The notes beneath the pieces were generated by a model that searched no databases, had not been told where the DNA came from, and saw nothing but the letters and a program-made list of their open reading frames with translations. Shown piece after piece: positions 14,695 to 29,859 of a stretch of 56,356 nt of DNA; position 1 is the first letter of the stretch; each line of letters starts with the position of its first letter. This stretch comes from Planctomycetaceae bacterium (GTDB taxonomy: Bacteria > Planctomycetota > UBA1135 > GCA-002686595), in assembly GCA_050480685.1 (NCBI GenBank), contig JBJHAV010000001.1:1-56356 (forward strand), given 5' to 3'. The translations under genes were made by a program, and so were the position numbers.

Positions 14695-17592
14695 TCAATC
14701 CGAGCTCGGCGGGCCCGGGGCCAAAAATGTCTGGACCTGCCCCCGCGGAAGCCCGTCCGCGTCGTACCAAGAATCCAGCACAACCCCGTGGACCGGGTCA
14801 GCCAAGCGCTGCAACAGCGTCGCCCCGAGCGGCCCGGCCATGCCCGGATCCGTCGCCCCGTCCCGCAGCAACCCGGCCAAGGCCGGATCGAGCAGCGCGT
14901 GGCTGCTGGAAGCCTGGCTGATGCCATCCGGGCGCACCAGCCGGTCCAGATCGAAGACGGCGCCCGCCGGGTCGTAGAAACTCGCCGGCGCTTGATTGAA
15001 GGGTTTGCGGTCGGGGTTCGTGTCCAGCGGATTCACGGGCCGCCCCTGGGCGTCGAAAACGAACAGACCGCTGCCGAGTCCGGCAACCATGTGCACCCAG
15101 AAAGGAGAGTCAAGCTGGTTGCCGGTGTTCCGGCCGATGTGTGTCTTGAGCAACTCCCAGTCCAGATCGTCGTAGTTGCCGGAGGCGATCGCCTGGCGGA
15201 AGTCCTCGTACTCGGGCCCCCAGTTCTCCAGGGCGTTTTCGGTCAGGTGGCATGCGACGCAGTAGCGCGGGCCTTCCATCTTTGGACCGACCTTGCCGCG
15301 GATCGAGTGCGCCATCAAGGCGTTGTGGGAGAGGGCCGGATAGGCCGCCGCCGGACTGTTGCCTTGACCCTTGCGATCGGAGAACGCGAAGACCTGGGAC
15401 AGGTCGCCGTTCAAATCGCGGTAGCGGAAGAAGGTTTTGGTGTTGGCGCTGACCTGGGCAATCTTCCCGCGTGAGTTGATGCCAAGCTGGAAGGGCACCG
15501 GAGACTGGTAGACGAAGTCCGCGAAGCGTTCGCGGAACACGATGCGTTCCCCGGTGATGTTCGAGAAGTTGTTCCCGGTGTTGTACTCCCCTTCCAGGTG
15601 GCACCCCATGCAGGTGTTGGTCCACGCCGAGTGGCAGGTCGCACAATCCATCCGATCCGTGTGGCTGAATCCGGTGTGCGGATTGCCCACCTGCTGGGGC
15701 CCGAGGCCCGTGGAGGGATCGCCGTCGATGCGCCCCATCGCGTAGGAAGCCGCGACGCTGTAGAGGGGCGTTTCGTCGAAGGGGTTGGTCACGCCGGTAT
15801 CGACGGTGACGTCCCGTGTCTGCGGCACGAAGTGCTTGGCGCCAGTGACCTTGCTGTAGAGATAAACGTGCCCATCGGCCTCCCGGCGCACGTGGCGCAG
15901 CACGTTGCCGCGCGTGTCGGTGAGGTGCTGACCGGGCTGCCCCAGGTAGTTTGTGCCCGCGACCGTCTCCGCGTAGTGATCCACACCACCGTGACAGCTC
16001 TCGCAGGAGATCGCCACCGCCTGCTCCATGCGCGAACGAATCGGGCTCAGTCCACTGCCGAGCGTACCTCCGTGCAGTTCGTGGGACCCGTGGCAATCGA
16101 TGCAGCCCATACCGGCCTCGTAGTGGACGTCCGGAGGCGTGTCGTCCCGCCCATCTCCGTCGTAGTCCTCGAAGGATAGGTACTGATGGAAGTTGCGACC
16201 GTTGAAGGTGTTGTTGCCGACTTCCGGATCGAACAGGCGCGGATCGTCCTTGGTGTTCGTGAAGGAGACCGGATTGGCCGGATACTGCCGGTTGCGCCTC
16301 ACATCCTGGTTTTGGTCGAGCCGAATGCCCCAGTACTGCATGACGGTGCGGTTCGAACCCTGGTGGCAACCTGCGCAGGTGTGGTCGTCGATGCCTCCCA
16401 CATGCACACCCGAGTCGAGGGTGCGCGCCACACTTACGATCCGGTGTGCCCGCACGTGGGACCGTTCCCCGGACGCGATGTTGTCCGGGTTGAGAGGCTC
16501 CAGCGGATTCATGTGCGGGTCCTTGCTGCCCGTGCGTCCGCCTAGGCTGTAGGGCATGTGACACGCCGAGCATCCGGAGGACCGGAAGTCGCCCGCCCGG
16601 TTGTTGGCTCCGGCACTGCCCAGGTGGCAATCGCCGCACGTGAAGGCCACCTGTTCGTGGAACAAACGGGCGAGCTCCGAGTCGCTGATGACCCGCCCAT
16701 CGGCGAGCTGCTGGTTGGCGAGCAACGCGGCGCTGTAGGCCTGGTTGTTGTGGATCTTGTTCGGGTGGGTCGAGTTGTGCTGGCTGTGGACCGGATGTTC
16801 GATCAAACGCGGAACCTGCCCGGGTTCGGCTGTTTGCGCCGAGTAGTTGGGGTCGCTGACCGCGCGAAAGCCCAGGTCCGCCGCGGTGTCCAGATGCAGC
16901 CCCTGATTCTCCGCAACGTAGTTCTCGATGCCCGCCGAGAAGGAAGCGCCCGACAGGACCCCCGCCGAAGTGGCCAGCAAGCTGTTGGTCACCAACTCGG
17001 AGTGCGGTGCGTGGCACTCTCCGCAGCCGCGGCCGAGTTGCGTCACCCGCAGGTCGCCGGGATTGATGAACTGCAGGTAGTCGATGGCAGTGTAGGTTTT
17101 GCCGTCCACCGTGTAGTCCGGGAACTTGTCGATCCCGGCCAAGGTGCGACGGTTGAAGAAGGCCAATGCGTTGGTCTTTTGCTTCTCGCGGTCGCCGATC
17201 TGGGGCGGAGGCGGAACGTGGGCCGCGAACTGGTCGCTGGCGCTGCCATCGCCACCATGGCAAACCGTGCAGTCCATGCTCTCCGCGCCGGGAAACGGAT
17301 GCGGGTTTTCGATCCCAGGACCCGAGTAGTTCGCATCCAACGAACCGTTGTGGCACAGCATGCACGAGCTGGCCGTTTGGGGCTGCAAGCTACTGGTTTC
17401 TCCGGGAGTCCCCAGCCCGCAGCCAGTGCTGCCAACAAGCAACAGCGCAAGTCCCAGGGCGAACCCCGCGCCTCTCAGCGCACCCAAGCGCTGCCGCCTG
17501 TCCGCTTCTGCTCCGATCCGGCCTCGCATACCTCTCCCCTCCCTTGCTTCCCAAGCGACCGGCGCGTCCCCACACACCCGGCCTCGCTTCAT
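14695..17592 (-). CDS. Large multihaem c-type cytochrome (11 CxxCH), probably a lipoprotein
   Basis: I count 11 CxxCH motifs (CMLCH, CTVCH, CGECH, CGDCH, CSACH, CAGCH, CIDCH, CESCH, CATCH, CMGCH, CVACH). Signal with a lipobox-like LLLVGSTGC. An alternative start at 17529 (MRGRIG...) is possible. Confidence 0.85.
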   Translation of the reverse strand: MKRGRVCGDAPVAWEAREGRGMRGRIGAEADRRQRLGALRGAGFALGLALLLVGSTGCGLGTPGETSSLQPQTASSCMLCHNGSLDANYSGPGIENPHPFPGAESMDCTVCHGGDGSASDQFAAHVPPPPQIGDREKQKTNALAFFNRRTLAGIDKFPDYTVDGKTYTAIDYLQFINPGDLRVTQLGRGCGECHAPHSELVTNSLLATSAGVLSGASFSAGIENYVAENQGLHLDTAADLGFRAVSDPNYSAQTAEPGQVPRLIEHPVHSQHNSTHPNKIHNNQAYSAALLANQQLADGRVISDSELARLFHEQVAFTCGDCHLGSAGANNRAGDFRSSGCSACHMPYSLGGRTGSKDPHMNPLEPLNPDNIASGERSHVRAHRIVSVARTLDSGVHVGGIDDHTCAGCHQGSNRTVMQYWGIRLDQNQDVRRNRQYPANPVSFTNTKDDPRLFDPEVGNNTFNGRNFHQYLSFEDYDGDGRDDTPPDVHYEAGMGCIDCHGSHELHGGTLGSGLSPIRSRMEQAVAISCESCHGGVDHYAETVAGTNYLGQPGQHLTDTRGNVLRHVRREADGHVYLYSKVTGAKHFVPQTRDVTVDTGVTNPFDETPLYSVAASYAMGRIDGDPSTGLGPQQVGNPHTGFSHTDRMDCATCHSAWTNTCMGCHLEGEYNTGNNFSNITGERIVFRERFADFVYQSPVPFQLGINSRGKIAQVSANTKTFFRYRDLNGDLSQVFAFSDRKGQGNSPAAAYPALSHNALMAHSIRGKVGPKMEGPRYCVACHLTENALENWGPEYEDFRQAIASGNYDDLDWELLKTHIGRNTGNQLDSPFWVHMVAGLGSGLFVFDAQGRPVNPLDTNPDRKPFNQAPASFYDPAGAVFDLDRLVRPDGISQASSSHALLDPALAGLLRDGATDPGMAGPLGATLLQRLADPVHGVVLDSWYDADGLPRGQVQTFLAPGPPSSD

Positions 17593-17667
17593 CGGACCAG
17601 GGGGTGGATCCCTTGAGGCAACCTGTCTACCCGGAAGATTTTTCCGCCCCGCCGCGATGGCCGCCGC

Positions 17668-18336
17668 TCAACGGACTTGGGCCTGCTGCCAGGTCGTCGG
17701 CAGGTGGCAGCGGTCGCAGCGATCGACCCAGCCGAGCGCGATGTGGTTAGGATTTTGCGCACCCTGCAGATCCGCCTGGTGGCACGACACACAATTGTGA
17801 TCGGTGGGCACGAAGCGCCCCACCGCCGAACCCGGGTGGCAACGATGGCAAGCGGTGATCGCGTGAACACCCACCAGCGGAAAACGGGTCCGGTTGTGGC
17901 GCTCCACCATGCCGACCGCTTGCCAATTCACTTCGTGGTGGCAGCTCGCGCAGTTTTGGCCCAGTTGACCGAGGTGCACGTCCTCGTGGCAGCCCGCGCA
18001 GCCACGGGCCGCGAAAACCTCCACCGGGCCTCGATCGTTGTGACACAGCAGGCACTGGGCCGCCGAGTGGGCCCCGACGAGCGCCACTCCCGTCTCCTTC
18101 TCATGGTCAAAATGGAAGTCCGCCCGCAGACGATTCCAGGAGTCACCCTCATGGCACAGACTGCAATCCGCCGGGAAGCTGTCATGGGGCAACACCGGTC
18201 CCAACCCAGACCACCAACGATGCACCTCCACCCGATGCGGCCGAGAGAGTGAGCAGGCGATCGCAAGCAGCAAGAGTGCGGCCGCGGCCACACGCCCGCG
18301 AGCTGTGGGACACAGCCAGGCGTTCAGAAGGTCCAT
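17668..18336 (-). CDS. Small multihaem c-type cytochrome (7 CxxCH, c7/c3-like modules)
   Basis: CSLCH, CLLCH, CAGCH, CASCH, CHRCH, CVSCH, CDRCH. Signal MDLLNAW...AAALLLLAIAC from the ATG at 18336. Overlaps the upstream stop by 13 nt. Confidence 0.85.
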   Translation of the reverse strand: MDLLNAWLCPTARGRVAAAALLLLAIACSLSRPHRVEVHRWWSGLGPVLPHDSFPADCSLCHEGDSWNRLRADFHFDHEKETGVALVGAHSAAQCLLCHNDRGPVEVFAARGCAGCHEDVHLGQLGQNCASCHHEVNWQAVGMVERHNRTRFPLVGVHAITACHRCHPGSAVGRFVPTDHNCVSCHQADLQGAQNPNHIALGWVDRCDRCHLPTTWQQAQVR

Positions 18337-20084
18337 TGGGCAAAGACTCCAACGGCTAGGCCGTACTCTTGGTCGCGCAGGGTGGCCTCCACGGAGCTGG
18401 AGAGGCTCAGCCGCAGGGTCGGGCGCCACACCAGACCGGCGCGCACACGGTGTTGCTGAAACTCATCGCTCTCCGATGGGAAGCCCTTTTGGCGTTGGTG
18501 GGCGTACTCGTATCCGAAGTCGCTGAAGATCCGTTCCCCACCGAACTGAAGGGACTGGCGCGCGCCAAGCACTTCGGTGAAGGCCCCATCCACAGCAAAA
18601 ACGCTGGTGTTCGATGCGGAGCCGGTCCCGAAGAGCCCATCCAGTCGGAAGCCGACCTCCACGTCCCCCCCCTCTTGGCGCACATCCTTCCAGAGCCCCA
18701 GGCGGCCGAAGACACGGCCTTCCTCCACCAGATCGGCCCACAGCTCGGCGCCAACGCGGTCGAGACGCTCCTTGGCGAGTTGCTCGGGAAGAACTTCGGG
18801 ATAAAACTCCTTGCGGTCGAGTTCGGGGAACTCAAGGTGCACGTAGTCGAGGGCCAAGCCCCAGCGCCCGTCGAATTCCCGATTGGCGTTCACGAACGCT
18901 TGGGTCAGGCCCAGGCCCGGCCCACGTTCTTCGTCGCCGCTCGTGTACCAGTCCACCCAAGCCGTGGCGAACCCGCGCCAACCATCCCGCGGCAGGTAGT
19001 GCGCCGCGAGCACGAAGAGATCCCGGTCGGCAGCGCCGTCGTTCCACGTCTTTTGATAGCCGGCCCGCGCGGCCAACCACTCGCTAGGATCCGCGACCCA
19101 CTGGTACCAGAGCCCCACCTGGAAGTCGCGCCCGCTGGTGAACTCCTGGTCCGGTAGGGGCATCCAACCCATGCTCGCGCCAAAGCGGTGACCCTCCTCG
19201 CGTCGGAAGCTCCACTCGCCCCCGTCCAACACCCCGAACTCCGGCATACCGGATTGCAGGAAGCGTCCCGCTTGCCATCCGGCGGGATCGAAGCGTGTCC
19301 CGCCCTCGCGATAACTGAAACGCTCGACCCGCAACCTGGAGCTCGAAAGATCGTCCTGCTCCACCCTGCGCGTGGCCCGCTGGTCCCATTCGACGGCCGC
19401 GTGGAGTTCGCCCCCCCGACGCCCGAGGTTGTGATAGCGCAGTTCGCCGCCCGCACGCAGGAAGCGATCCCTGCGCGAATCGTCGTCCGTCACGATTAGA
19501 TCCGCGCCCACGAACAATCGCCCGCTCATGAAGGGTGTGCGCTCCGATGGATGCACCCCGCGCAAGCCGGCGAGCAGGGGGCGATCTTGGCTCCAGTCAT
19601 CCGCTTCACGGGACCAGGCCGAGGGAGGACGCGTTTCGATGTCCCGCTCCTCCGGAGATTCCCGCGGCTCTTCGTGCGCTTCGTCGGGCCTAAAACGAGC
19701 GGCCGGAACACTCAGACTTCCGCGCGTGCCCGCCGCCCAGGAGCGACCCGGCTCCACCGGTTCCACGAGCGCCGAGCGCAGCTCGACCTCCACGACCCTC
19801 GCCAAAAACGCGACACCATCACGGGGCTGGAAGCGCACCAAGTCGCCGGGCTCCAAGCCATCCGCCGCGCCGCGATCCACGCGAGCACGGCCGCTCTCCA
19901 GGACGCCGACCACACGCATCTCCACGCGCACGTCCTGTGCGGTGGCCGCCTGGAGCACCTCCCCCTGGTCGGCGCCTTCCTGCTCAGATCCGTCTTCCGA
20001 AAGTCCCCGGGCGATCGCACGGTGATTCGGGGCGAACGCGGCAAGCGCGATCACCAATGCCGCACCGGCCAGGGAACCCCTCAT
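18324..20084 (-). CDS. Putative outer-membrane beta-barrel protein with an N-terminal soluble domain (porin-like partner of the cytochromes)
   Basis: Signal MRGSLAGAALVIALAAFA. Long stretches of alternating hydrophobic/polar residues rich in aromatics. C-terminal beta-signal-like ...LAVGVFAQWTF ending in Phe. ATGA overlap with the upstream cytochrome gene. Confidence 0.65.
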   Translation of the reverse strand: MRGSLAGAALVIALAAFAPNHRAIARGLSEDGSEQEGADQGEVLQAATAQDVRVEMRVVGVLESGRARVDRGAADGLEPGDLVRFQPRDGVAFLARVVEVELRSALVEPVEPGRSWAAGTRGSLSVPAARFRPDEAHEEPRESPEERDIETRPPSAWSREADDWSQDRPLLAGLRGVHPSERTPFMSGRLFVGADLIVTDDDSRRDRFLRAGGELRYHNLGRRGGELHAAVEWDQRATRRVEQDDLSSSRLRVERFSYREGGTRFDPAGWQAGRFLQSGMPEFGVLDGGEWSFRREEGHRFGASMGWMPLPDQEFTSGRDFQVGLWYQWVADPSEWLAARAGYQKTWNDGAADRDLFVLAAHYLPRDGWRGFATAWVDWYTSGDEERGPGLGLTQAFVNANREFDGRWGLALDYVHLEFPELDRKEFYPEVLPEQLAKERLDRVGAELWADLVEEGRVFGRLGLWKDVRQEGGDVEVGFRLDGLFGTGSASNTSVFAVDGAFTEVLGARQSLQFGGERIFSDFGYEYAHQRQKGFPSESDEFQQHRVRAGLVWRPTLRLSLSSSVEATLRDQEYGLAVGVFAQWTF

Positions 20085-22243
20085 CTCCCTCCTCCGAAGC
20101 GGCGCAGGGACCCCGAACCGACACCGTGGCAATCGGTGCATGCGCTCCCCAGGGGCTTGTAGCGGATCGTTTCTCGACCGGAGATCACGGTCGGCATGTG
20201 GCAAGCACTGCAGTCGAGCTCGCGGTGCGCCCCATCGAGCCGAAAGCGGGAGTCCCAGTCGTGATCGAAGGTGAGACTCGCGAAGTCCCGCGCCGCATCG
20301 TGGCAACGGGCACAGTCGGCCGCGCGAGGTGCACCACCGGGTGTCAGCGGCTCCCGAGCAAACTGCCCCAGGTGGGGATCAACGTGGCAGTCGGCGCAGG
20401 CATTGCCCCGCGGCGGACCCAAGCTGAGCTCACCCCGTTCGACACCCGCCAGGGGCGTGTGGCAATCGGTGCAACTGGCTTGGGCGTGGGCTCCGACCAG
20501 CGCAAAACCTGTCCACAGAGCGTGATCGAAGCCGTGGGGCAGCTCCCGGAAACTGGTTTCCCCGTGGCAGCGGGCGCACCCTTCTCGGTCGAAGAAGCGC
20601 GTCGGCAGATGGGGTCCGTCGAAGCGCCCCCCATGGGGATCGGTGTGGCACACGGCGCAGCTCTGCCCCACCTCCGCTCCACCGTGCATGGCGGGCAGGG
20701 CGCCAAATCGCTGGGCAACACGACCGAATCGGCGTCGGGCCGTGTCCGGCTCCGACTTGGGTGTGTGGCACGCAAAACAACCCTCTTGTTCGTGCGCCCC
20801 CGTCAGGGGAAAACCGGTCCAGTGCCCATGGTCAAAACGTCCATGGGGTACCTCGGAGAAACGCGTCGGGTCATGGCACTCGGCGCACGCACCCTGCGGA
20901 GCTCGCATCTCGCTCGAAATCTCGGCCAACCGACCATCGAAAAAACCGCTGTGGGCGTCCGCGTGGCAGTCCGCGCATTGGTTGGAGGTGCCGCGAAACC
21001 GCCTCGGAAGATCCGCGTGCGCCTGCTGATGGCACGCCTCACAGGACACCGCCAGATGACTGTCACTGAGCGGCATCGTGGTTCGCCCATGGTGCTCGAC
21101 ACCGAATAGGTGCGGCGCGAAGTGTGTGGTCGCGTGGCAGCCGACACAGCCTTCTTGGGCAAAGGGTCCCGTCGCGAACTGCCCCCCGTGGGGGTCCCCA
21201 TGGCAATCGATGCACGCGAGCTGCTGACGCCCCGGATGGCGTGCAGCAAAGTCCTCGAGCTGGGGATCGTGGCATGCGGAGCAGTCCAGCCGATCGTGGG
21301 GCGCCTCCAAGCGGAAACCTCCCAAAGCATGCAGGTCCGGATCGAGGGTCAGATTGGGATCGCGAAAGCTCGTGTGCGCGTGCTCGTGACAGGCGGCGCA
21401 GCTTGCTTCCAGGGAAAGCCCGAAGCGACGCGCGGCGCCAGAACCAAAGGGCAAGCCGTGGGGGGAATCATGGCAGTCGAGGCAGTTCCTCATCTCCGGC
21501 CCGCGGCCGCCGGGTCTCTGCCGCTCTAGAGCGTGTTTGGTGTTTTCCCCGTGACAGACACGACAGTTGAGCTCCGCGTGGCCACCGATCAGAGGAAGGT
21601 GGCGTTCATGCCCGAGGCTATGCGGTCGATCAAAACCGTGTTGATCGTGGCACTCGGTGCACGAGCGCTGCATGGCTCCTGCGTGGGGATCCTCGTGACA
21701 GGAAGCGCAGTTTGCTTCCAAGCCGAAGAACCTGTGGGATCCGTGGGGCAGCACATCCACGTGCGCATTGGCATGGCAAGCGCTGCAGTCCAGCTCCAGG
21801 TGGCGGCCTTCCATGTGGAAGCCGAGCCGGGAGTGATCGAATTGTGAGGGATCGGGCACCCCAGCCTTGGCAAAACTGAGGCGATTGACCGGGGTGAACC
21901 CGGTTCCATGGTGTTCTCCATGGCATTCCGCACAATCCTTGGCCCGGGCCCCGAGCAGGCCGTGCAGCCCTCTCCCGGTCTCGATGTGCTCCGCGACCGC
22001 GCCGTGGCAATCGAGGCAAGCCGAAGCCATGCTTTGGAACCAGCCCCCGTGGCATGCGCTGCAACTGTTCGGGCCGGCGAGTTCGGGAATGCTTCCGTGC
22101 ACCGCGGACAGGGGCCCCGGTGGAGTGCGCTCCACCTGCACCAGCGCCATGACCACCACCAGGGTTGCGCTGGCCACGGCAACCCAGAGCCCCGTGCGCG
22201 CCGACGGCAATCCGCTTCCCCGGATCTCTCCTTCGATCTTCAC
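20081..22243 (-). CDS. Giant multihaem c-type cytochrome (23 CxxCH) with an N-terminal membrane anchor
   Basis: I count 23 CxxCH motifs. Recurring module FDHxxxxxFxLxGAHxxxxCxxCH. GTG at 22243 gives a GTGA overlap with the upstream stop, followed by the anchor helix LWVAVASATLVVVMALV. The ORF-track start at 22351 would overlap the upstream gene by 112 nt. Confidence 0.85.
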   Translation of the reverse strand: MKIEGEIRGSGLPSARTGLWVAVASATLVVVMALVQVERTPPGPLSAVHGSIPELAGPNSCSACHGGWFQSMASACLDCHGAVAEHIETGRGLHGLLGARAKDCAECHGEHHGTGFTPVNRLSFAKAGVPDPSQFDHSRLGFHMEGRHLELDCSACHANAHVDVLPHGSHRFFGLEANCASCHEDPHAGAMQRSCTECHDQHGFDRPHSLGHERHLPLIGGHAELNCRVCHGENTKHALERQRPGGRGPEMRNCLDCHDSPHGLPFGSGAARRFGLSLEASCAACHEHAHTSFRDPNLTLDPDLHALGGFRLEAPHDRLDCSACHDPQLEDFAARHPGRQQLACIDCHGDPHGGQFATGPFAQEGCVGCHATTHFAPHLFGVEHHGRTTMPLSDSHLAVSCEACHQQAHADLPRRFRGTSNQCADCHADAHSGFFDGRLAEISSEMRAPQGACAECHDPTRFSEVPHGRFDHGHWTGFPLTGAHEQEGCFACHTPKSEPDTARRRFGRVAQRFGALPAMHGGAEVGQSCAVCHTDPHGGRFDGPHLPTRFFDREGCARCHGETSFRELPHGFDHALWTGFALVGAHAQASCTDCHTPLAGVERGELSLGPPRGNACADCHVDPHLGQFAREPLTPGGAPRAADCARCHDAARDFASLTFDHDWDSRFRLDGAHRELDCSACHMPTVISGRETIRYKPLGSACTDCHGVGSGSLRRFGGGR

Positions 22244-24531
22244 AGGGCGCCTACCGTCAACCGCACGGATCCGTAGATCCATGCGTAGGCCACGTGGAAA
22301 GCGGTCAAGAGGATCAGCAGGAGCGCGCCCCAGCGGTGCAACCACCGCCACCCGGAGGCGAGGGCACGCAGATCCTCATAGTGGGAGGAAACCAGCGCCG
22401 CGCGGTGAACACCCCGCGCCAAACGTCCCAACTCGGCCAACTGGTCTTGCGCCATTCCCGACGCGCGTGCGCGCCCGTGCAGGGCCCTCAGGAAGCGCAG
22501 CAGCGACCACTCGGATGCAACAAGTGCAATGAGCCGCGTGGGGAGGCTGGCACCCCAGCGCCGCTGCTCTACCAAGTGCGCCACCTGCTCGCGAATCTCT
22601 TGCGCCAGCCTCGGATCGACACGTTCGAAGCCAGCGGTCCAACGGGCTACACGCTCCCGCGATTCGGCCAACTCCAATTCGCGTCCGCCGGCGGCACGGG
22701 GCACACGGGCGTACAAATAGCGCCCGATCACCCCTGTGACGACCAGGGCCACCAAAACCCAGAGCGCTTGCCCGCCCAGGGTTCCGCGCACCTCCATGCC
22801 TCCATGCAGCAGCACAAGAGGCAGCGCGAGCAACCCCGTGGCCACGTGCACGTCCATCCAGGTGCGCAGCGAGGCGAACCGCACCTTCCACCACTGGCGG
22901 CGGCGCAGCAGGTACGCGAGGTTCAAGGCCAGTGCCAGCGCGGCCGCGAGGCCGAACCACAGACCCCACCCCTGCCCGGGCCTCAGGCGGCCGTGATCCA
23001 AGTGCGTTGCCCGGCCGGCCCGATCCAGGAAGTAGTAGTCCCCATGCCAAAGTGCGAAGCACAGGGCCGCCAGAGCGCCACCCAACGCTACGGAGAGCCC
23101 TAGGGTCAGCCCACGTCGCTGGGTTTCCTGGTCGGCGGCTAGCGCACGGTCGGCCGGATCGAAGGAAACACCGCAGCGCTCGAGCAACGCCTTGGGGGCT
23201 TCACCGCCCGCTTGGATGAAGACCAGGTCGTTCGCGATGCGATCGCTCGTCGAGTCGGCCGCACCCTCATCGACCTCGACCGGACCCAGAAGCACATGAT
23301 CCGCGCCGATGGATCGAACCCGCGTGCCCAAACGCGCTTCGATTCGGCCCGCTTCCAGCGCCTGTTCGAACCGTCGCTGATTTTTTGCTTTGGCGCGCAG
23401 GAGCGCACCCTGGCGGTAGCTCAGCGTTACGCGATTGCCCGGCTGTTCGGCCAAAGCCAGGGCCGTCTCGACCGCGCTGTCGCCCCCGCCGACCACCAGG
23501 ATCCGCTTGCCCCGGTGCGACTCGGCATCGAGCAGGCCGTAGGCCACCTTGGGCAGTTCCTCCCCGGGAACACCCAGACGATTGGGGGCACCCCTGCGCC
23601 CGAGCGCCAAACAGATCTGCCACGCCTTCCACTCACCCCGGCTCGTGCGCACCGTCCAGGTTCCATCCGCAGCCTGCTCGGCGCCCTGGAACTCCACTCC
23701 GCAGGTGATCGGCAGATGATGATCCGAGGCAGCTTTGCCCCAGAGTTCCATCAACTCCTCCTTGGAGTAGCTGTGACGCCCCAGCCTCCCTACAAGCGGA
23801 AGTTCGATCGGCTGGGTCAGAACGAGCTTGGCCCGCGGATAACGCGCAACGGTGCCCCCTAGGCCGGCCTCACGCTCCAAAACAGCGAAGTCCAGCCCTT
23901 GGCGCCGGGCTTCGAGGGCCGCCGCCAGACCCGCGGGGCCGGCCCCGACGATGACAAGATCGAGCACACCGGATCGCGCCGTCCGCCCGCGCGCTGCCTG
24001 GGCCGCCCGGCGAGCCACGGCAGTTCCGTGGTCGACCGCCGTCTTGACCAGCGCCTGGGCCGTCACTTCGCCGGCCAGGAACAATCCCGGTCGCCGTACC
24101 GCTTCGAGGGTCTCATCGATCGCCGGGATGTCCGTGCGGGCCTCCACATCGGAAAGCCCTAGGCGGATGGCCCCCGTGGGGCATTCCCGTGCGCATGCAC
24201 CGGTTCCGACGCAACCGGCACCCCGCACCAGGGAGGCTTGGCCGTGCAGCATCGCCAAGACTTCGTCCTCTGGACAAGCGCGCACGCACGCGCCGCAGCC
24301 CATGCACTTGTCGAGGTCGATCGTCGGGTGCCGCAGGGGTGCGCGGTCGGCTCCGACGGAGCGCACACGTTCGCGCCAATGCAGCAGCCGCTTGAGTTCG
24401 CTGCGACCTTCCCGGCGCAGAACGAACGACAGCACGGCCAAGGCGAGGGTCGAAAGCGCCCCTGTTAGCAGGGCCCAACTCACGGCTGCCTCTCCCCGAA
24501 GGTGCCTAATGCGCGCCTTCTTCCGCGGCAC
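22240..24531 (-). CDS. Fusion protein: N-terminal TM helix, ferredoxin-like FeS domain, FAD/NAD(P)H pyridine-nucleotide-disulfide-oxidoreductase-like domain, and a C-terminal 5-TM domain with two bis-His pairs
   Basis: CMGCGACVRACP and CVGTGACARECP. DLVIVGAGPAGLAAA and ILVVGGGDSAVETA dinucleotide folds. C-terminal helices carry H562/H576 and H732/H746, each pair 14 residues apart. GTG start at 24531. Confidence 0.8.
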   Translation of the reverse strand: MPRKKARIRHLRGEAAVSWALLTGALSTLALAVLSFVLRREGRSELKRLLHWRERVRSVGADRAPLRHPTIDLDKCMGCGACVRACPEDEVLAMLHGQASLVRGAGCVGTGACARECPTGAIRLGLSDVEARTDIPAIDETLEAVRRPGLFLAGEVTAQALVKTAVDHGTAVARRAAQAARGRTARSGVLDLVIVGAGPAGLAAALEARRQGLDFAVLEREAGLGGTVARYPRAKLVLTQPIELPLVGRLGRHSYSKEELMELWGKAASDHHLPITCGVEFQGAEQAADGTWTVRTSRGEWKAWQICLALGRRGAPNRLGVPGEELPKVAYGLLDAESHRGKRILVVGGGDSAVETALALAEQPGNRVTLSYRQGALLRAKAKNQRRFEQALEAGRIEARLGTRVRSIGADHVLLGPVEVDEGAADSTSDRIANDLVFIQAGGEAPKALLERCGVSFDPADRALAADQETQRRGLTLGLSVALGGALAALCFALWHGDYYFLDRAGRATHLDHGRLRPGQGWGLWFGLAAALALALNLAYLLRRRQWWKVRFASLRTWMDVHVATGLLALPLVLLHGGMEVRGTLGGQALWVLVALVVTGVIGRYLYARVPRAAGGRELELAESRERVARWTAGFERVDPRLAQEIREQVAHLVEQRRWGASLPTRLIALVASEWSLLRFLRALHGRARASGMAQDQLAELGRLARGVHRAALVSSHYEDLRALASGWRWLHRWGALLLILLTAFHVAYAWIYGSVRLTVGAL

Positions 24532-24618: not shown

Positions 24619-25311
24619 TCAGCGCGGCTCGCTGATGCGGGCCGTGGTCTGCACCCGCCCGATCGGTGCGGCACTTTGCACGTAGTCGCGACCGGCTTTG
24701 TGAAGCCGATCGATCCGCCGCGCGAGTTCGGTCAAGCCGATGCGCAGGGTGTCGATCTGCGGCTCCAGGGCCGTCACCGAGGACACGCTCAGATCATTGG
24801 CCAGATAGCGTGTGTAGTCGAGCAGCAGGTTGTTGAAGGCGTCCAGAGCCTCCTGTACGGGTCCGATGGCCGCTACGACTGCCTGATACTGGGCTTGGGT
24901 CATGCTGCGCCGCTGCCGAGCCTGCGTCGCTAGGCCCGGATCGCTGATCGCATCGATGTCGGCTTGCCAAGAGTCGAACACCGCTGCGGCCGAGGACTCC
25001 ATCGGTCCCAGCCCGGCGCGAAACCGGTCCGCTTGGGCCTGGCTGCGCTGCACCGAGGCGCGGAACGACTCGTAGGCCTTGTGGGCGTCTCCTTGCAGTT
25101 CTTGCCGCACGATCGATCGCAGCACATCGACGGCATCGCGGGCTCGGCCCTGGGCCACGTCGGCATCCAAGTGCATGCGTTCGACGCGGCCGACCAGGCC
25201 ATCCACTTGTTGGATGCCGGCTGCCTGCTGCGGCCCCTGGCAAGCGACGAGCAACGTGCCGACCGCCGCGGCGAGGACCCAACGGGTGAAAGACGTTTTC
25301 ATGGGGTTCAT
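24619..25311 (-). CDS. Coiled-coil lipoprotein, DUF2959-like
   Basis: Lipobox LLVAC. The helical, Gln/Ala/Arg-rich sequence resembles the DUF2959 family as I remember it. That family assignment is unverified. Confidence 0.55.
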   Translation of the reverse strand: MNPMKTSFTRWVLAAAVGTLLVACQGPQQAAGIQQVDGLVGRVERMHLDADVAQGRARDAVDVLRSIVRQELQGDAHKAYESFRASVQRSQAQADRFRAGLGPMESSAAAVFDSWQADIDAISDPGLATQARQRRSMTQAQYQAVVAAIGPVQEALDAFNNLLLDYTRYLANDLSVSSVTALEPQIDTLRIGLTELARRIDRLHKAGRDYVQSAAPIGRVQTTARISEPR

Positions 25312-25346: not shown

Positions 25347-27413
25347 TTATGCGGCTTCACGCGGTGAGGAATCGACAGCGAGTGTGGTCACCGCCTCCGG
25401 GCTGCCTTCGGATCGTGTTCGACTTGCGCGCCAGGCCAGGTAGGGACCGAGGCCGCACACACTCCACTGGAGCAGGTAGTAGGTCCACAGGGCCCCGTGA
25501 ACGCCGCTGGTGAAGCCGTAGCTGTGCAATCCGACGCCCAGCAAGTTCGTGCCCCACCAGGAGAAGGCCACGATGGTGCCCGTGAAAGCGGCACAGGCGG
25601 CAATGCCCACTTCACGCAGCAGACCCGAGGCCTTGCCGTGCAGAATCGCCAGCAAACCGATGCAAATCAGCAGGGCGCCGTTCTCCTTCGGATCCCAGCC
25701 CCAGAAACGCCCCCAGGAGTCGTTGGCCCAGATGCCTCCCAGGATGGTGCCCACCAGGGAGAAGATCAGTCCGAAGGCCACCGCGCCGTAGGTCATGCGC
25801 GTCAGGGCGCGGCGTCGATCGCGGGGCATGCGATCCCCGCGCACCACCCGCCAGATCAAGTAGACGCTGCCGAGGAACGCGGCGAACAGGGCCGCCGCAT
25901 AACCGATCACGATCGTGGTGACGTGGGTTGCCAACCAGAAGTTGGTGTCCAGCACGGCCACCAGACTTGGCATCGTGTCGCGCCGCTCCAGCGTTTCGTA
26001 GCCGTTTGCCAGAAACAGGCCCACGACTCCCAATCCCACGGCGAGCGCGCCCGAAATGCGCCTGCGATCGATCCACTCGATGACGAGGCCGAGGGCGACG
26101 CCGCAGGCCGTCACGAAGAGGACGGTCTCGTAGAGTGTGCTGACGGGGGGACGTTCGCGGATGATGCAGCGCAGAACGATCGCAAACGTCAGCAGCACGA
26201 GGCCCACGGTGGCAAGTCCCGTCGCCGCCGTTTGGGCAAAACGCGCCGCCGGCCGCAGCCAGGTCCAGACCGTGGCGGTGAAGGCCAGCAGGAAGGCCAC
26301 CAGGCTCCAATGCAGCGGCTTGAGGCGGTAGTAGCGGATCTCTAAATCCAATCGACGGGTTTCGCCCCGCGCCGCCGCCAGGGGTTCGGTTTGAGCCAGC
26401 AGTGCGCCCAGTGCGGCCTCGACCCGTGCCGGATCCCAGGGCCCGGCGGTAGCGCGCGCCAGGCCTTCCAAGGCTTCAAGGGAGGCAAACTCCGCCGCGC
26501 TCGCGCGCCGGCCGCCAAGTCCCGCGTGTAGCCATTCTCCGGGTGTCCACCAGTCCGGTTGCGCTGTGACCGGCTCCGCCGGCGGCAACACGGCGAGCCG
26601 CGTGGAGGCCCGACCTAGGTCCGACGCCAGTCGCAACACGCCGTCGAGGCGTGTGACCGACTCCCGATCGAGGGGGTCGCTGCTCGCCCCCCAACTCCGA
26701 TAGTGGGCCGCGACCTCGGGGCCGCGGGCGACCAACTGCGAGTAGCGGATCGAGTTCGCCCCCCCGAAGAGGGTCCGCACACTGCCGTCCGCCGGCAGGG
26801 GCAACTCGAGCTGCGCGAAGTCCAGGAAACCCGCCAAACCGAGGAACAGGTCGACCGCCTCGGCCAACTGCACCACCTGGTGCTGCAGGGAACTGCGTTG
26901 CCCGGCCGGGATCGGCGCCCACTGGTGCGCCAACTCGAAGAGTTTGGAAACGCCCGGTTGGAGCTCGTCGAACGTGTAGCGATCGCGCCGCTTCTTGATT
27001 CGCACGTCCAGTCCCAGGGCGTGCACGGCCGCCGAGTCTTGCACCTGGAAGCTGGGATAGGTCGCTGCCCGCGCCGGATCGGTCAGCACGTCGAGCAACC
27101 ACGCCGTGGCGCCGAGGGTTTCACCGTCGGGTGTCGTCACGGTGCGCCTTCCGTTCAGGCGCAGCAGGGTGAAGGAGGCGTAGGTCGAAAGCGGCTTGAC
27201 ACGACCTCCATCCTGGACAGGCAGACGCCCTGCGAGTTCCAGTGCCCGCTTCGACCACGGAGCCGTGCGCACGTCGCCCTGCACTTGTCCGTGGGCTTGG
27301 GCGAATTCGTGCGCGTGCACGCCGTGCTGTGCATTGGCGACTCCCGCGAAGGCGCTGGGAATGCCCCAGGTGGCGATCAGTACCAGGGCGGCCGCGAGCA
27401 AGCGATGCCTCAT
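25347..27413 (-). CDS. ccsA: Cytochrome c biogenesis System II protein CcsA/ResC with a ~340-aa N-terminal periplasmic extension
   Basis: WWD/Trp-rich motif WANDSWGRFWGWDPKENGALL, multiple TM helices in the C-terminal half, and a signal peptide at the N-terminus. ATGA overlap with resB. Confidence 0.85.
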   Translation of the reverse strand: MRHRLLAAALVLIATWGIPSAFAGVANAQHGVHAHEFAQAHGQVQGDVRTAPWSKRALELAGRLPVQDGGRVKPLSTYASFTLLRLNGRRTVTTPDGETLGATAWLLDVLTDPARAATYPSFQVQDSAAVHALGLDVRIKKRRDRYTFDELQPGVSKLFELAHQWAPIPAGQRSSLQHQVVQLAEAVDLFLGLAGFLDFAQLELPLPADGSVRTLFGGANSIRYSQLVARGPEVAAHYRSWGASSDPLDRESVTRLDGVLRLASDLGRASTRLAVLPPAEPVTAQPDWWTPGEWLHAGLGGRRASAAEFASLEALEGLARATAGPWDPARVEAALGALLAQTEPLAAARGETRRLDLEIRYYRLKPLHWSLVAFLLAFTATVWTWLRPAARFAQTAATGLATVGLVLLTFAIVLRCIIRERPPVSTLYETVLFVTACGVALGLVIEWIDRRRISGALAVGLGVVGLFLANGYETLERRDTMPSLVAVLDTNFWLATHVTTIVIGYAAALFAAFLGSVYLIWRVVRGDRMPRDRRRALTRMTYGAVAFGLIFSLVGTILGGIWANDSWGRFWGWDPKENGALLICIGLLAILHGKASGLLREVGIAACAAFTGTIVAFSWWGTNLLGVGLHSYGFTSGVHGALWTYYLLQWSVCGLGPYLAWRASRTRSEGSPEAVTTLAVDSSPREAA

Positions 27414-28579
27414 GATCTCGTGCGCTCCTTCGCCACGAAGAGCGCTAGCTTGCGGCCGAAGTGGAGCAGCATCCCGGCGGCGATCACCAGACAGGACCAG
27501 AGCGGCCAGGGATCGGAGGGGTTGCGCGAGACGGCCAAGGTCGAGAAAAGCGGATCGCCGGGCCGCGCGTTCGAGGGCCCCCAGGAGGCCTGGTAAAGCA
27601 CCAATCCGCGCTCCCGCAGCGGTTGGTTCATGGAGATGGTCACCGGTCGCGCGGTGCCACCTTCACGGACGAGCACATCGCTCGAAAACCAACTGGGCAT
27701 CGACGTGCGCGGGTGATCGACTTTCGTGAAGCGCTCCAGCGTGACCTCGAAGGGCATCGGCCAACGTTCGCGGCGCAGGTCGATGGCAAAAAGTTGACCT
27801 GCGACTTCCAGGGTCCAGGGCGCCGCATCGAAGGCCCACAGCATGCCCTGGGTGCGCACGCCCCCCGGTTCAACCACGTTGACGTAGGCCCCCGGTCCGT
27901 TGCGCTCCGATTGGCGATCGCGCGGCTCGGACCGCAGGAAAAATCCGTCGACCACGGGGACATCCACCTGGAAGGCCGGCCCCTTGGGCAAAGCCGTGGC
28001 GTTGCCGAACCAGTGGGTCACCTCCAGATCGAAGGGCAGGTCCGGATCGGCAAACACGAGCGGCGCGTCCGGCCGGGCATGGGCCAAACGGCGCTGGTTC
28101 ACCACCCGCTCTTCCACGCGGCCATCGGGCAAGATGCGCGAAATCGCGATCTCGTTGGTGTGGTAACTCTGGAACGAGCGCGACGTCTGACCCTCATAGA
28201 GTGTCGTGTGCCCATCCTCGGCAAAGTGCAGCTTGACGAAGCCCGAGAGCAGCAGGAAAGCGATCCCGACGTGGGTCACTAGGATGCCGGCCGTTGCCCA
28301 AGAGCGCCGCAGTCGCAGCACGCCGCCGACGAACAGATTGATGCCGAGCAGGCTCAGAACGAGGTTCGCGCCGGGCAGCGGAATCGTTACGGGTCCGGCC
28401 CAGTGAACGAGGGCGTAGGACTCGAAGTACTTCTTCTGGACGTCGTAGAGTCCGTACTCGACCTGCTCCAAAGTGCCCAGGAAGGTCAAAAGACCCAGCA
28501 GCAGGAGCAGGACGAACGCCAGCCGCATCGAACCCAAGACCGACCCGATGCGCCCACCCAAACTGCGAGCTCGTTTCAT
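27410..28579 (-). CDS. resB: Cytochrome c biogenesis System II protein ResB/CcsB (Ccs1)
   Basis: N-terminal MRLAFVLLLLLGLLTFLGTLEQ, a large periplasmic loop and a C-terminal TM helix, matching ResB layout. Coupled to ccsA. Confidence 0.8.
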   Translation of the reverse strand: MKRARSLGGRIGSVLGSMRLAFVLLLLLGLLTFLGTLEQVEYGLYDVQKKYFESYALVHWAGPVTIPLPGANLVLSLLGINLFVGGVLRLRRSWATAGILVTHVGIAFLLLSGFVKLHFAEDGHTTLYEGQTSRSFQSYHTNEIAISRILPDGRVEERVVNQRRLAHARPDAPLVFADPDLPFDLEVTHWFGNATALPKGPAFQVDVPVVDGFFLRSEPRDRQSERNGPGAYVNVVEPGGVRTQGMLWAFDAAPWTLEVAGQLFAIDLRRERWPMPFEVTLERFTKVDHPRTSMPSWFSSDVLVREGGTARPVTISMNQPLRERGLVLYQASWGPSNARPGDPLFSTLAVSRNPSDPWPLWSCLVIAAGMLLHFGRKLALFVAKERTRS

Positions 28580-29859
28580 CGGACCTCCTCAAGGGAAGAG
28601 AGCAGTTCGAGGAAGTGCCCGCGCTGCGCCCTTGCGGTGGCCTGCGGCCCGATCAGCTTGAGGAAAACCGTGCGCTGGTCCAGCATCGCCACGGCGCCCA
28701 GCAGGTAAGCGTTCTCGAGGGAGCTCTCGCCCATGCCGCGGTAGTGGCCGGTGGCTTCGATCAGCACCGCTTGGACTCCTAGGGCGTCCACGCGCTCCAA
28801 TGAGGCGTGTTCGGCCGGGGACAGGGGCCCGAGTCCGATTTGACCGCGCCAGCGATCCAGGTTGGATCGCACACCACCGCCGTCGCCGGCCAGCACCGCC
28901 ATGTAGATCTCGACTTCCCCTTGCGTGCCTGCGTGCCACGTGGCGACGCGCATGGGCCTGGCCGCCCCGTCGACCCAAGGATCGGGTCGGGTCCACGCCA
29001 GCCCCTGGCCGCCCGTGCGCGCTTCGGAAGCGCCCTGATGCGCGCCACCGACGTAAGCCCGTGCGCCCGGTTCCTTCGCCCCATGCTCGGCGCAGTCGTC
29101 CCAGTCGTGATCGGAACCATGCCCGTGGGTGTACCCGTGATCGGTTGCTGGCCACTCGAATCGCAGGGAGGCGGCAAAGGTCTCGAACGCCGCGAGCTCC
29201 GCGCGCACGATCTCCTCGGGGCCGGTGAATTTGAGGAAGGCGGAACCTTCCGGATCCACAGCCAATAGCCCGAGCATGCGATATCCGGGCCCACCACCCG
29301 CCGCCGGATCACTGGGTAGCGCCATGCCCCCGTAGGTCCCCGCTGCGTCGAACCAGACCGCGGGCACACCCAGCAACGTGCGGCGTTCCAACGCAGCGAT
29401 CCCCGCTTTACCGAAAGGGGCGAGGCCGAGTTGTGCGCGCCAACGATCCACGTTGGCCGCCAGCCCTCCGCCGTCCCCATTCAAGAACGTCAGCGTCACC
29501 TCGGCGCGCGCATCACCGGCGGCCAGGAGGTTGAGCGTGCGCATGTCCGTGGGCGCCAACTCGCGCCAGCCCTCGGGAAGCTCGTGGGCCAGAACCGGTT
29601 CCGAAGCCTGCCCCGCGGAAGGCGCCGCTTGCCTCCCGGTGCCCCCCGCCTGCCGCCCCGGGGCCGCTGCCCCCGTGAAGCCAAAGCGCTCCGCCGTGGG
29701 GACGCCCATGCGCGGAGCACGTTCCTCGACCACACGGACCACGTCGAAGCTTTCGAGCCCGCGATGGGCATCGCCGCAGCCCACGCCCCACCAGGCGAGG
29801 CAGCCCACAAGCCACGGAGCCCCGCTATTTCGAATCCTCTGCACCAACACCCCCTCCAC
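28576..29859 (-). CDS. Lipoprotein with two tandem copies of an uncharacterised ~140-aa domain joined by a His-rich linker
   Basis: Motif GDGGGxxxNxDRWRxQxGLxP occurs twice (aa 128-147 and 325-344) inside two alignable halves. Linker HGYTHGHGSDHDWDDCAEHG. ATGA overlap with resB. Alternative GTG/TTG starts are possible. Confidence 0.65.
   Translation of the reverse strand: MEGVLVQRIRNSGAPWLVGCLAWWGVGCGDAHRGLESFDVVRVVEERAPRMGVPTAERFGFTGAAAPGRQAGGTGRQAAPSAGQASEPVLAHELPEGWRELAPTDMRTLNLLAAGDARAEVTLTFLNGDGGGLAANVDRWRAQLGLAPFGKAGIAALERRTLLGVPAVWFDAAGTYGGMALPSDPAAGGGPGYRMLGLLAVDPEGSAFLKFTGPEEIVRAELAAFETFAASLRFEWPATDHGYTHGHGSDHDWDDCAEHGAKEPGARAYVGGAHQGASEARTGGQGLAWTRPDPWVDGAARPMRVATWHAGTQGEVEIYMAVLAGDGGGVRSNLDRWRGQIGLGPLSPAEHASLERVDALGVQAVLIEATGHYRGMGESSLENAYLLGAVAMLDQRTVFLKLIGPQATARAQRGHFLELLSSLEEVR

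Follow-up and report, generated by a model that had tools for sequence, protein, structure and literature searches.

A conserved gene cluster of Planctomycetota that may encode an NAD(P)H-fed multiheme electron conduit across the cell envelope

The DNA analyzed in this study is a stretch of 56,356 nucleotides, hereafter the window, from a Planctomycetaceae bacterium (assembly GCA_050480685.1, contig JBJHAV010000001.1). Positions 14695-29859 of the window hold a cluster of nine genes, which an initial annotation had read as an electron conduit from the cytoplasm to the cell surface. Translation placed the nine open reading frames (ORFs), all on the minus strand, at the coordinates given in that annotation. 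In gene order, they are:

Gene 1, 28576..29859, minus strand: lipoprotein with two homologous domains of ~170 amino acid residues (ORF, translation, self-similarity)
Gene 2, 27410..28579, minus strand: ResB/CcsB, the heme-handling subunit of system II cytochrome c biogenesis (Pfam PF05140)
Gene 3, 25347..27413, minus strand: CcsA, the system II cytochrome c synthase (Pfam PF01578)
Gene 4, 24619..25311, minus strand: DUF2959 lipoprotein, accessory (Pfam PF11172, 68.3 bits)
Gene 5, 22240..24483 (ORF open to 24531), minus strand: inner-membrane fusion protein (Pfam, NCBIfam, PDB sequence, AlphaFold2 model, invariant residues)
Gene 6, 20081..22243 (gene caller's start 22282), minus strand: 23-heme cytochrome with an N-terminal membrane anchor (23 CxxCH motifs)
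Gene 7, 18324..20084, minus strand: outer-membrane protein of 586 residues (AlphaFold2 model, Foldseek, C-terminal Phe)
Gene 8, 17668..18336, minus strand: 7-heme lipoprotein cytochrome of 222 residues (7 CxxCH motifs)
Gene 9, 14695..17529 (ORF open to 17592), minus strand: 11-heme lipoprotein cytochrome of ~944 residues (11 CxxCH motifs)

The genes are tightly packed. The bases at the junctions show 4-nt overlaps of ATGA between genes 1 and 2, 2 and 3, and 6 and 7, and of GTGA between genes 5 and 6, as well as a 13-nt overlap, ATGGACCTTCTGA, between genes 7 and 8, all of which had been reported previously. The accompanying statement that no gap exceeds ~90 nt did not hold, however, as two gaps measure ~135-138 nt once the likely starts inside the longest ORFs are used. 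These starts are at 24483 for the fusion and at 17529 for the 11-heme gene, and each is preceded by a purine-rich, Shine-Dalgarno-like run. The former is also the start of the public gene call P0065, whose product has 747 residues. Recounting of the translations gave the 41 CxxCH motifs claimed earlier, of which 23, 7 and 11 are in the ORFs at 20081-22351, 17668-18429 and 14695-17592, respectively. No CxxCK or CxnCH variant of the heme motif was found in the translations of the cluster. Chance or artefactual ORFs in a window of 68% GC (66-73% across the window) were ruled out by the conserved homologs and conserved heme counts, since the counts of 23, 7 and 11 recur in the homologs. A scan of the window for promoters and terminators was uninformative; it returned no promoter-like site, and terminator-like sites were rarer than in shuffled sequences.

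Gene 5 encodes, in this order, an N-out transmembrane helix, a ferredoxin domain, a TrxR-like flavoprotein domain of the FNR/YpdA type and a diheme, cytochrome-b-type domain with five transmembrane helices. The initial annotation had described a ferredoxin-flavoprotein-membrane fusion. Pfam matches to Fer4 and Pyr_redox_3 bear out the soluble parts, but the description was incomplete in that the membrane part is itself a cytochrome-b-type domain with motifs for two hemes. The three domains are:

24142..24336, minus strand: ferredoxin domain (Fer4_7, Fer4 and Fer4_10 matches, residues 67-124)
23122..23964, minus strand: flavoprotein domain with FAD and NAD(P)H Rossmann folds (Pyr_redox_3, E 9.8e-33, residues 193-470)
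22243..23112, minus strand: membrane domain with five transmembrane helices and W-x3-H-x13-H on helices TM3 and TM5 (invariant His, Pfam profile matches)

Homologs of gene 5 with ~740 residues were numerous in Planctomycetota, to which all named matches of the search belonged. Seven Cys, two GxGxxG-type motifs and four transmembrane His were invariant in 64 aligned sequences. The Cys residues (C60, C63, C66, C70, C91, C97 and C101) form the ferredoxin pattern CxxCxxCxxxCP followed by Cx5CxxxCP. Such a seven-Cys pattern would fit a [4Fe-4S] plus a [3Fe-4S] cluster, or else a further, eighth ligand. The flavoprotein domain scored 125.8 bits against the NCBIfam YpdA model, below the equivalog cut-off of 339.9, and is thus a relative of YpdA rather than an ortholog. 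Its invariant features include GAGPAG for FAD, GGGDSA for NAD(P)H, and R357 and R363 at the place where TrxR-type enzymes bind the 2'-phosphate. No CxxC redox disulfide is conserved across the 64 sequences, and the domain is therefore not a thioredoxin reductase. Its best PDB and Foldseek matches were 7a76/7a7b (YpdA/Bdr), 2zbw, 3ab1 and 6gar (FNR). The two-Rossmann fold without the TrxR disulfide places it in the TrxR-like FNR/YpdA class.

In the membrane domain, H89, H103, H259 and H273 as well as W85 and W255 were invariant in 57/57 sequences, and G127-x2-G130 on TM4 (TGxIG) was also invariant in these 57. At E <= 0.1, 56 of the 57 homologs matched PF01794 Ferric_reduct (best 1.4e-7), 53 matched DUF4405 and 48 matched Ni_hydr_CYTB. 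The domain of the window itself matched DUF4405 only, with 20.8 bits against a cut-off of 26.7. In a profile alignment, the last helix of the domain was aligned with helix B of cytochrome b6 with both heme-ligand His matched (E 0.008). The AlphaFold2 model of gene 5 (pLDDT 82) contains the N-terminal transmembrane helix, the soluble domains and five transmembrane helices, with a helical insert of ~100 residues before the last one. A Foldseek search with the whole model returned matches for the flavoprotein domain only and none for the membrane domain. The sequence has a short, uncharged N-terminus and segments rich in Arg and Lys after TM0, TM2 and TM4, so that by the positive-inside rule the flavin and iron-sulfur domains and the helical insert are assigned to the cytoplasm. 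One His pair would lie near each face of the membrane, and two bis-His b hemes are predicted. The repeated W-x3-H-x13-H motif is the signature of diheme cytochromes b and ferric reductases, and NOX, FRE, STEAP and cytochrome b move electrons through the membrane by such a layout. Gene 5 would thus be NOX-like, with electrons passing from NAD(P)H to FAD, to the iron-sulfur domain and to two b hemes.

The three c-type cytochromes differ in heme density and in how they are attached. The 23 CxxCH motifs of gene 6 were found in 62/68 homologs, with 31 residues per heme, and every named match in the search with this protein belonged to Planctomycetota. Its matches included Cytochrome_C7 (E 2e-24) and, in part, DmsE/MtrA (E 5e-15), and its profile matched the Geobacter dodecaheme protein GSU1996, MtrA (6r2q_A, E 1.5e-6) and MtrF. 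A hydrophobic N-terminal helix without a lipobox, followed by an SPGPL motif, is conserved among the homologs, in agreement with the membrane anchor proposed earlier, and assigns the protein to the inner membrane. Gene 6 looks like an anchored periplasmic wire, by analogy with the 21-27-heme cytochrome of PCC3, which was judged long enough to span the periplasm (PMC10734462).

The protein of gene 8 has 7 CxxCH motifs in 74/82 homologs, 32 residues per heme, an invariant lipobox Cys (C28) and a median identity of 63% across loci. It would be of the right size for a plug of a 22-strand barrel and is a candidate for the barrel-embedded cytochrome. All 58 homologs of gene 9 contain 11 CxxCH motifs, with 86 residues per heme. 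Their lipobox Cys was invariant in 53 sequences, which upholds the lipobox-like signal noted previously for this protein; the 7-heme protein is also a lipoprotein. With identities of 56-72% across loci, the 11-heme protein is, together with the 7-heme protein, the best conserved component. Against the NCBIfam model ExtM it scored 97.5 bits (cut-off 800), over a region of ~100 residues and two shorter stretches. No solved homolog of the 11-heme protein was found, and single-sequence and profile searches gave marginal matches to NrfA-type heme pairs (E 0.005-0.5). The protein is a candidate for a surface-exposed terminal reductase.

The product of gene 7 is predicted to be an outer-membrane β-barrel, as had been expected from its C-terminus. 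The AlphaFold2 model, built with 64 homologs, has a pLDDT of 85.4 and a pTM of 0.75, and consists of a signal peptide, a small β-domain at ~51-127 and 22 antiparallel strands at 185-585. These 64 homologs were 35-48% identical, all annotated as 'hypothetical' and, where named, all from Planctomycetota. A C-terminal Phe (…AQWTF or …LQRSF), typical of a β-signal, was present in 68/76 homologs. All structures that Foldseek returned from the PDB were outer-membrane barrels, namely porins and the PapC/FimD ushers (E 1e-10 to 1e-6, TM-score 0.3-0.5). The sequence matched neither Pfam nor NCBIfam (E <= 0.01), and PDB sequences were matched neither by the single sequence nor by the profile. The fold class is therefore clear, but no specific relative emerges. 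The small β-domain matched weakly, by profile, the KOW/SH3-like fold of ribosomal protein L24 (E 0.016) and is kept even in the distant homolog at locus L090, described below. This domain might serve for docking in the periplasm or act as a plug.

The cluster is conserved well beyond the window. When the barrel profile was run against GTDB, with each species represented by a single genome, the barrel family was found in at least 107 species genomes, of which every named one belongs to Planctomycetota. The nine window proteins were compared by tblastn with 80 retained loci, and the following counts are limited to loci with enough flanking sequence. The fusion, 23-heme and barrel genes were contiguous and co-directional in 53/56 loci. 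The barrel, 7-heme and 11-heme genes followed one another in 56/60, nine of them with insertions before the 11-heme gene. DUF2959 was found upstream in 38 of the 50 loci with 10 kb of upstream sequence. ResB and CcsA, usually with the gene 1 lipoprotein, were upstream in 17 of these 50 and inverted in two cases. As the lipoprotein-ResB-CcsA module is present in about a third of the genomes, the conserved unit is a core of five to six genes, (DUF2959)-fusion-23-heme-barrel-7-heme-11-heme. Hence, of the nine-gene unit proposed in the initial annotation the core stands, but genes 1-3 are not a constant part of it; likewise, heme-attachment genes do belong to the cluster in the window but adjoin the core in only 17 of the 50 loci. 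The genes flanking the cluster vary between loci.

The closest relatives of the window cluster, with identities of 54-70%, are in the complete genomes of two cultured bacteria of the 'Saltatorellota' lineage, Engelhardtia mirabilis Pla133 (CP036287.1) and strain Pla163 (CP036290.1). Cultured strains from the Baltic Sea, where they belong to the particle-attached fraction, are among the hosts (10.1101/817700). Four cluster-bearing metagenome-assembled genomes (MAGs), OFTM34, OFTM161, OFTM220 and OFTM274, are from the Oslofjord tunnel, whose biofilms have been described as Fe/Mn-oxidizing and for which porin-cytochrome matches were mentioned generically (PMC10732223). The isolate names of other host MAGs point to activated sludge, lakes and groundwater.

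Several loci depart from the common arrangement. In strain Pla163 (L008:15065-17823), a gene for an SMC/AAA-like protein of 832 residues and a small ORF on the opposite strand lie between the 23-heme and barrel genes, and the fusion protein has 906 residues. In E. mirabilis (L007:6932-9047), a regulator of the AraC family and two small ORFs lie between CcsA and DUF2959. The MAG PL25a_bin.106 (JANQJF01) contains two paralogous loci, L038 and L086. The barrel of the divergent one is 32% identical and its '7-heme' homolog is longer; no 11-heme gene was found within 10 kb downstream in this locus or in L087 and L088.

More distant relatives of the gene 5 membrane domain were also found. A HMMER search with this domain alone returned 1559 representative proteins at E < 1e-3, many of them free-standing and of ~290-300 or ~420 residues. 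Six distant relatives (24-35% identity) were examined in seven loci, two of which, L094 and L095, share an identical protein. In all seven, the cytochrome b (283-420 residues) is encoded by a separate gene. In all five loci that reach far enough, the ferredoxin-flavoprotein (440-482 residues) is also encoded by a separate gene, which either adjoins the cytochrome b gene or is in the same cluster. These five loci are:

L089, 6059-13182: 20-heme anchored cytochrome, 16-heme lipoprotein, barrel-sized ORF
L090, 6622-16791: 20-heme anchored cytochrome, 10-heme lipoprotein, barrel-sized ORF, 11-heme protein
L092, 723-11001: 20-heme anchored cytochrome, 13-heme lipoprotein, barrel-sized ORF
L093, 190-2394: short, with the gene pair only
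L094, 9001-18013: 591-residue cytochrome and 547-residue ORF

Three orders were observed, with the ferredoxin-flavoprotein gene directly upstream of the cytochrome b gene with a stop/start overlap, directly downstream of it, or at the far end of the cluster. In four of the five loci, the anchored cytochrome of 20 hemes (or 591 residues) adjoins the cytochrome b. The 10-16-heme lipoproteins of L089, L090 and L092 are homologous to the 7-heme protein of the window. The barrel-sized ORF of L090, the only locus where barrel homology was compared, is homologous to the window barrel (hhalign 96.7%, E 4e-10), and the 11-heme protein of L090 is 57% identical to that of the window. Fusion in one lineage and adjacency in shuffled orders provide strong genomic evidence that the flavoprotein, the cytochrome b and the cytochrome/barrel set would work together.

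The heme counts of the two periplasmic cytochromes vary between the fused and split forms. Their tally is 23+7 = 30 in the window (17668-22243) and 20+10 = 30 in L090 (9263-11846), and 20+16 in L089 and 20+13 in L092. The split-type lipoprotein has extra hemes at its C-terminus, and these align to the 23-heme protein. This suggests that heme modules may have moved between the two periplasmic cytochromes.

On balance, the cluster probably encodes a trans-envelope electron conduit that is fed by cytoplasmic NAD(P)H rather than by the quinone pool and that runs outward. Gene content, motifs, predicted folds, lipoprotein and anchor signals and the conserved linkage are established. In the route that we infer from them, the flavoprotein domain of gene 5 would oxidize NAD(P)H and pass the electrons to the fused seven-Cys ferredoxin domain. 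From there, electrons would cross the inner membrane over two bis-His b hemes on the W-x3-H-x13-H helices, one per face, and enter the anchored 23-heme cytochrome in the periplasm, whose length at 31 residues per heme would be enough to bridge this compartment. The 7-heme lipoprotein cytochrome, in or under the 22-strand barrel, would receive them next. Finally, the 11-heme lipoprotein on the outer face would reduce an extracellular or cell-surface acceptor, most likely Fe(III)/Mn(IV) minerals, humic substances or the like. The presumed elements of this route are the occupancy of the cofactor sites, the sequence in which the c-type cytochromes act, the surface exposure of the 11-heme protein, the outward direction and the acceptor.

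The direction is argued from energetics: on a passive two-heme wire to NAD(P)+, electrons moving inward would have to overcome the redox couple as well as the membrane potential, and the flow is thus expected to be outward. The initial annotation had seen no quinol dehydrogenase, and indeed none of the NapC/CymA, NrfD, ImcH or CbcL type was found, either in the scanned ORFs of the window or among annotated genes flanking the cluster in six related loci. With a flavin, iron-sulfur and diheme-b entry point, the cytoplasm-to-surface reading is strengthened. Those checks suggested in the initial annotation that were run here all favored its interpretation.

Several points weigh against this reading. 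The conduit as a whole, including expression, cofactor loading, localization and activity, is read from genes and models. The second iron-sulfur motif of gene 5 is one Cys short, the Pfam matches of the membrane domain are mostly under the gathering thresholds, and which cytochrome sits in the barrel is a guess. Export of NAD(P)H electrons without quinone coupling would conserve no energy. The cultured hosts were isolated as aerobic heterotrophs. Moreover, many of the MAGs are from oxic habitats such as activated sludge, and anaerobic metal respiration is therefore not an obvious lifestyle. Finally, the 11-heme protein is unusually conserved (56-72%) and poor in hemes (86 residues per heme), which fits a substrate-specific enzyme too.

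Such an enzyme is the basis of one alternative, which we consider unlikely. The 11-heme protein would catalyze the reduction of a particular dissolved substrate, for instance an oxyanion such as selenite/tellurite or else a compound of nitrogen or sulfur, at the surface or in the periplasm, with the barrel serving for substrate access or anchoring and not for electron export to solids. The conservation of the protein, which extends to the split-type locus L090, its many invariant non-heme residues and its low heme density fit such a role. So does the weak similarity to NrfA-like heme pairs. The ~100-residue region is shared with ExtM (E 6e-28), ExtN and ExtO, which belong to a Geobacter operon for selenite/tellurite reduction, but the ExtM score is far under the cut-off. 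In addition, no CxxCK or other atypical catalytic heme motif is present, and the invariant His and Met suffice for six-coordinate hemes throughout the protein. The invariant lipobox and a barrel gene locked by overlaps between cytochrome genes are a hallmark of porin-cytochrome export. The heme density of the surface cytochromes MtrC and OmcA is typically 65-70 residues per heme, which also counts against a dedicated enzyme.

It is likewise improbable, in our assessment, that the same outward, NAD(P)H-driven wiring is non-respiratory, serving ferric uptake (as FRE), formation of extracellular superoxide (as NOX) or as a redox overflow valve in aerobic particle-attached heterotrophs. The ferric-reductase/NOX-like architecture speaks for such functions, a bypass of quinones would conserve no energy, and in the window the flanks of the cluster are free of genes for anaerobic respiration. 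The hosts, which include the particle-attached Baltic Sea strains (10.1101/817700) and MAGs whose isolate names point to activated sludge, lakes and groundwater, are also consistent with it, as are the aerobic lifestyle of the cultured ones and the oxic habitats of many MAGs. For iron scavenging, however, 41 c-type hemes, a dedicated barrel and, in a third of the genomes, a maturation module would be a heavy cost. Genes for Fe(II) transport or siderophores and genes of the Fur type are not linked to the cluster, either in the window or in those related loci that are annotated. A multiheme chain ending in bis-His hemes is a poor O2 reductase.

In a further alternative, which we regard as quite unlikely, the conduit is the same but gene 5 would react with quinones through its cytochrome-b-type membrane domain, as He et al. 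suggested for the inner-membrane proteins of PCC3/PCC4. The quinone pool would then be the point of entry or exit for electrons, possibly with inward flow during oxidation of Fe(II)/Mn(II) or of a cathode, and the flavoprotein would be a side branch or have a regulatory role. The 'IMP' of PCC3/PCC4, found mainly in iron oxidizers and modeled as quinone-linked, shares the five transmembrane helices, both W-x3-H-x13-H motifs and the S/TGxxG motif (PMC5566968). The Ni_hydr_CYTB-type and cytochrome b families that the domain matches weakly are quinone-reactive, and some cluster-bearing MAGs come from the Fe/Mn-oxidizing tunnel biofilms (PMC10732223). However, the ferredoxin-flavoprotein is fused to or beside the cytochrome b in every relative with long enough sequence, even at 24-35% identity, and is therefore argued to be its obligatory redox partner. 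Moreover, no quinone-site motif was identified in the domain, and inward transfer to NAD(P)+ would be uphill, as argued above. Nothing in the window or in those related loci that are annotated spoke for a reductase confined to the periplasm and served by a known quinol dehydrogenase as a separate protein.

The remaining genes of the cluster encode the maturation module and accessory lipoproteins. The domain duplication noted earlier in gene 1 is real (36% identity over 170 residues, E 2e-25). Neither gene 1 nor four of its homologs matched Pfam or NCBIfam; a lipobox is present in 10/14 homologs, and the gene travels with ResB/CcsA across loci. The earlier assignments of ResB, CcsA and DUF2959 were confirmed by Pfam. 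Gene 2, with an ATGA overlap at both ends, scored 58.9 bits against PF05140 (cut-off 24.6). Gene 3 scored 82.7 bits against PF01578 (Cytochrom_C_asm, cut-off 29.9) at residues 425-630, matched the NCBIfam ccsB model with E 3e-37, and has the WWD motif as WGRFWGWD at residue 567. With ResB and Cytochrom_C_asm both above their cut-offs and the WWD motif present, the pair belongs to system II. CcsA has 688 residues, and its N-terminal extension of ~400 residues opens with a signal-like helix and a His-rich stretch, HGVHAHEFAQAHG. The CcsA homologs in related loci are also long where called (676-681 residues). The DUF2959 protein of gene 4 has the lipobox LVAC, and a lipobox was found in 40/44 homologs. 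ResB and CcsA, probably with the gene 1 lipoprotein, would mature the 41 c-type hemes. The module of ccsBA and gene 1 is a frequent, optional neighbor of the core.

The flanks of the cluster are unrelated to it, with glycosyltransferases downstream and a divergently transcribed HEAT-repeat gene upstream, and the remainder of the window is housekeeping. At 37998-42299 on the minus strand, two adjacent DUF3299 proteins are encoded beside a MacB/FtsX-type permease and an ABC ATPase, and this group probably serves for export. An ORF of 1115 residues (30408-33755, plus strand) with only a weak CarboxypepD_reg match and two genes for HEAT-repeat proteins lie upstream. A Ser/Thr protein kinase domain and an FGE-sulfatase (sulfatase-modifying-factor-like) domain are joined in one ORF of 863 residues at 47037-49628 on the plus strand, which is seemingly unrelated to the cluster.

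To our knowledge, the characterized routes of extracellular electron transfer (EET) in diderm bacteria, namely Mtr, Geobacter Pcc/Ext and the proposed PCC3/4, are all quinone-linked via CymA, ImcH, CbcL or cytochrome-b-type proteins, and Planctomycetota are not known for multiheme-based electron export. Neither the cluster nor any porin-cytochrome system linked to a flavoprotein was described in the literature searched, which included a survey of Phycisphaerae and a preprint on EET in peat. We put forward, with a confidence just short of even, that the cluster is a quinone-independent EET system in which a NOX-like dehydrogenase is hard-wired to a chain of ~41 hemes and discharges reducing equivalents onto external acceptors, and that this system is widespread in Planctomycetota, including aerobic culturable species, and modular in fused and split forms. 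If so, it would follow a different bioenergetic logic, with redox balancing without quinones and an electrogenic step like that of NOX, and multiheme electron export would be extended to Planctomycetota. The presence of the cluster in the cultured Pla133 and Pla163 makes the idea open to genetics and biochemistry. In addition, a compact, self-contained module with, in some genomes, its own heme-attachment genes would be attractive for engineering NAD(P)H-to-electrode coupling.

Compared with known systems, the porin-cytochrome architecture pointed out in the initial annotation stands in that barrel, multiheme and lipoprotein cytochromes are arranged alike, but family-level homology to Mtr or Omb/Oma/Omc is lacking. 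Membership in the Mtr or Geobacter families was rejected, as the barrel has no family match and the cytochrome matches are partial and far below the cut-offs. The cluster is not a member of Mtr, Omb/Oma/Omc or Ext because the defining family models fail. Similar to MtrCAB of Shewanella, MtoAB and PioAB, it combines a barrel, a putative embedded multiheme cytochrome and a candidate surface lipoprotein cytochrome. The C-terminal ~180 residues of gene 6 (563-743) scored 55.7 bits against the decaheme model TIGR03508 of DmsE/MtrA (cut-off 192.2), and membership fails also on the number of hemes, 23 instead of 10. The barrel did not match the MtrB/PioB family, and MtrB was absent from the first 50 Foldseek matches. 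The barrel of MtrB has 26 strands (6R2Q), compared with the 22 predicted here. The 11-heme protein was unmatched to MtrC/OmcA in Pfam and NCBIfam and is a lipoprotein of a different family. Moreover, the heme numbers here are 23, 7 and 11, and entry is by CymA and quinol in Shewanella but would be by a flavin, iron-sulfur and cytochrome b protein here. Similar to OmbB-OmaB-OmcB/Ext of Geobacter, a porin and periplasmic and lipoprotein multiheme cytochromes are encoded side by side, and the 11-heme protein is partly like ExtM, ExtN and ExtO. Different from Geobacter, however, there is no quinol dehydrogenase of the ImcH/CbcL type and no family-level barrel match, and the ExtM equivalog cut-off is missed.

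The likeness to NOX, FRE, STEAP and MsrQ of the FRD superfamily of NADPH oxidases and ferric reductases lies in the proposed path from NAD(P)H over a flavin and two transmembrane bis-His b hemes to the outside, with H-x13-H on two helices. The two H-x13-H pairs that characterize the FRD transmembrane domain are present as motifs, and their heme binding is predicted. However, the dehydrogenase here is a TrxR-like two-Rossmann domain N-terminal to the membrane domain, whereas FRD proteins have an FNR-type FAD_binding_8/NAD_binding_6 module, which follows their membrane domain on the C-terminal side. In addition, a ferredoxin domain is interposed here, and the acceptor would be a 41-heme c-type chain and not O2 or Fe(III) directly. 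In the Ndh2-EetAB-PplA system of Listeria, a dedicated NAD(P)H-linked dehydrogenase feeds EET separately from aerobic respiration, similar to what is proposed here. That system uses a demethylmenaquinone pool and flavinylated lipoproteins in a monoderm, whereas the cluster described here has multiheme cytochromes and an outer-membrane barrel and is proposed to be free of quinones.

By architecture and membrane-domain motifs, and as judged from published descriptions, the closest described system is PCC3, whose clusters are found in Gallionellaceae, Leptothrix and other Proteobacteria (He et al. 2017, PMC5566968; Hoover et al. 2023, PMC10734462). Both have a porin, a long periplasmic cytochrome (21-27 hemes in PCC3 and 23 here) and an extracellular cytochrome (10-35 hemes in PCC3 and 11 in the candidate protein here). 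The PCC3 'IMP' of ~300 residues has five transmembrane helices, W-x3-H-x13-H on TM3 and TM5 and S/TGxxG on TM4, and these motifs are invariant here. Thus, a porin, a 21-27-heme cytochrome, a cytochrome of at least 10 hemes and the IMP signature are all present, and their genes are consecutive and conserved. The two systems differ in that the IMP module of the window is a domain of a 747-residue fusion instead of a free protein, that a ferredoxin and a TrxR-like flavoprotein are fused or adjacent here whereas PCC3 is modeled as quinone-linked with no flavoprotein, that an extra 7-heme lipoprotein is present here, and that the hosts are Planctomycetota rather than Proteobacteria. The cluster provides the enigmatic 'IMP' of PCC3/PCC4 with an assignment that can be put to the test.

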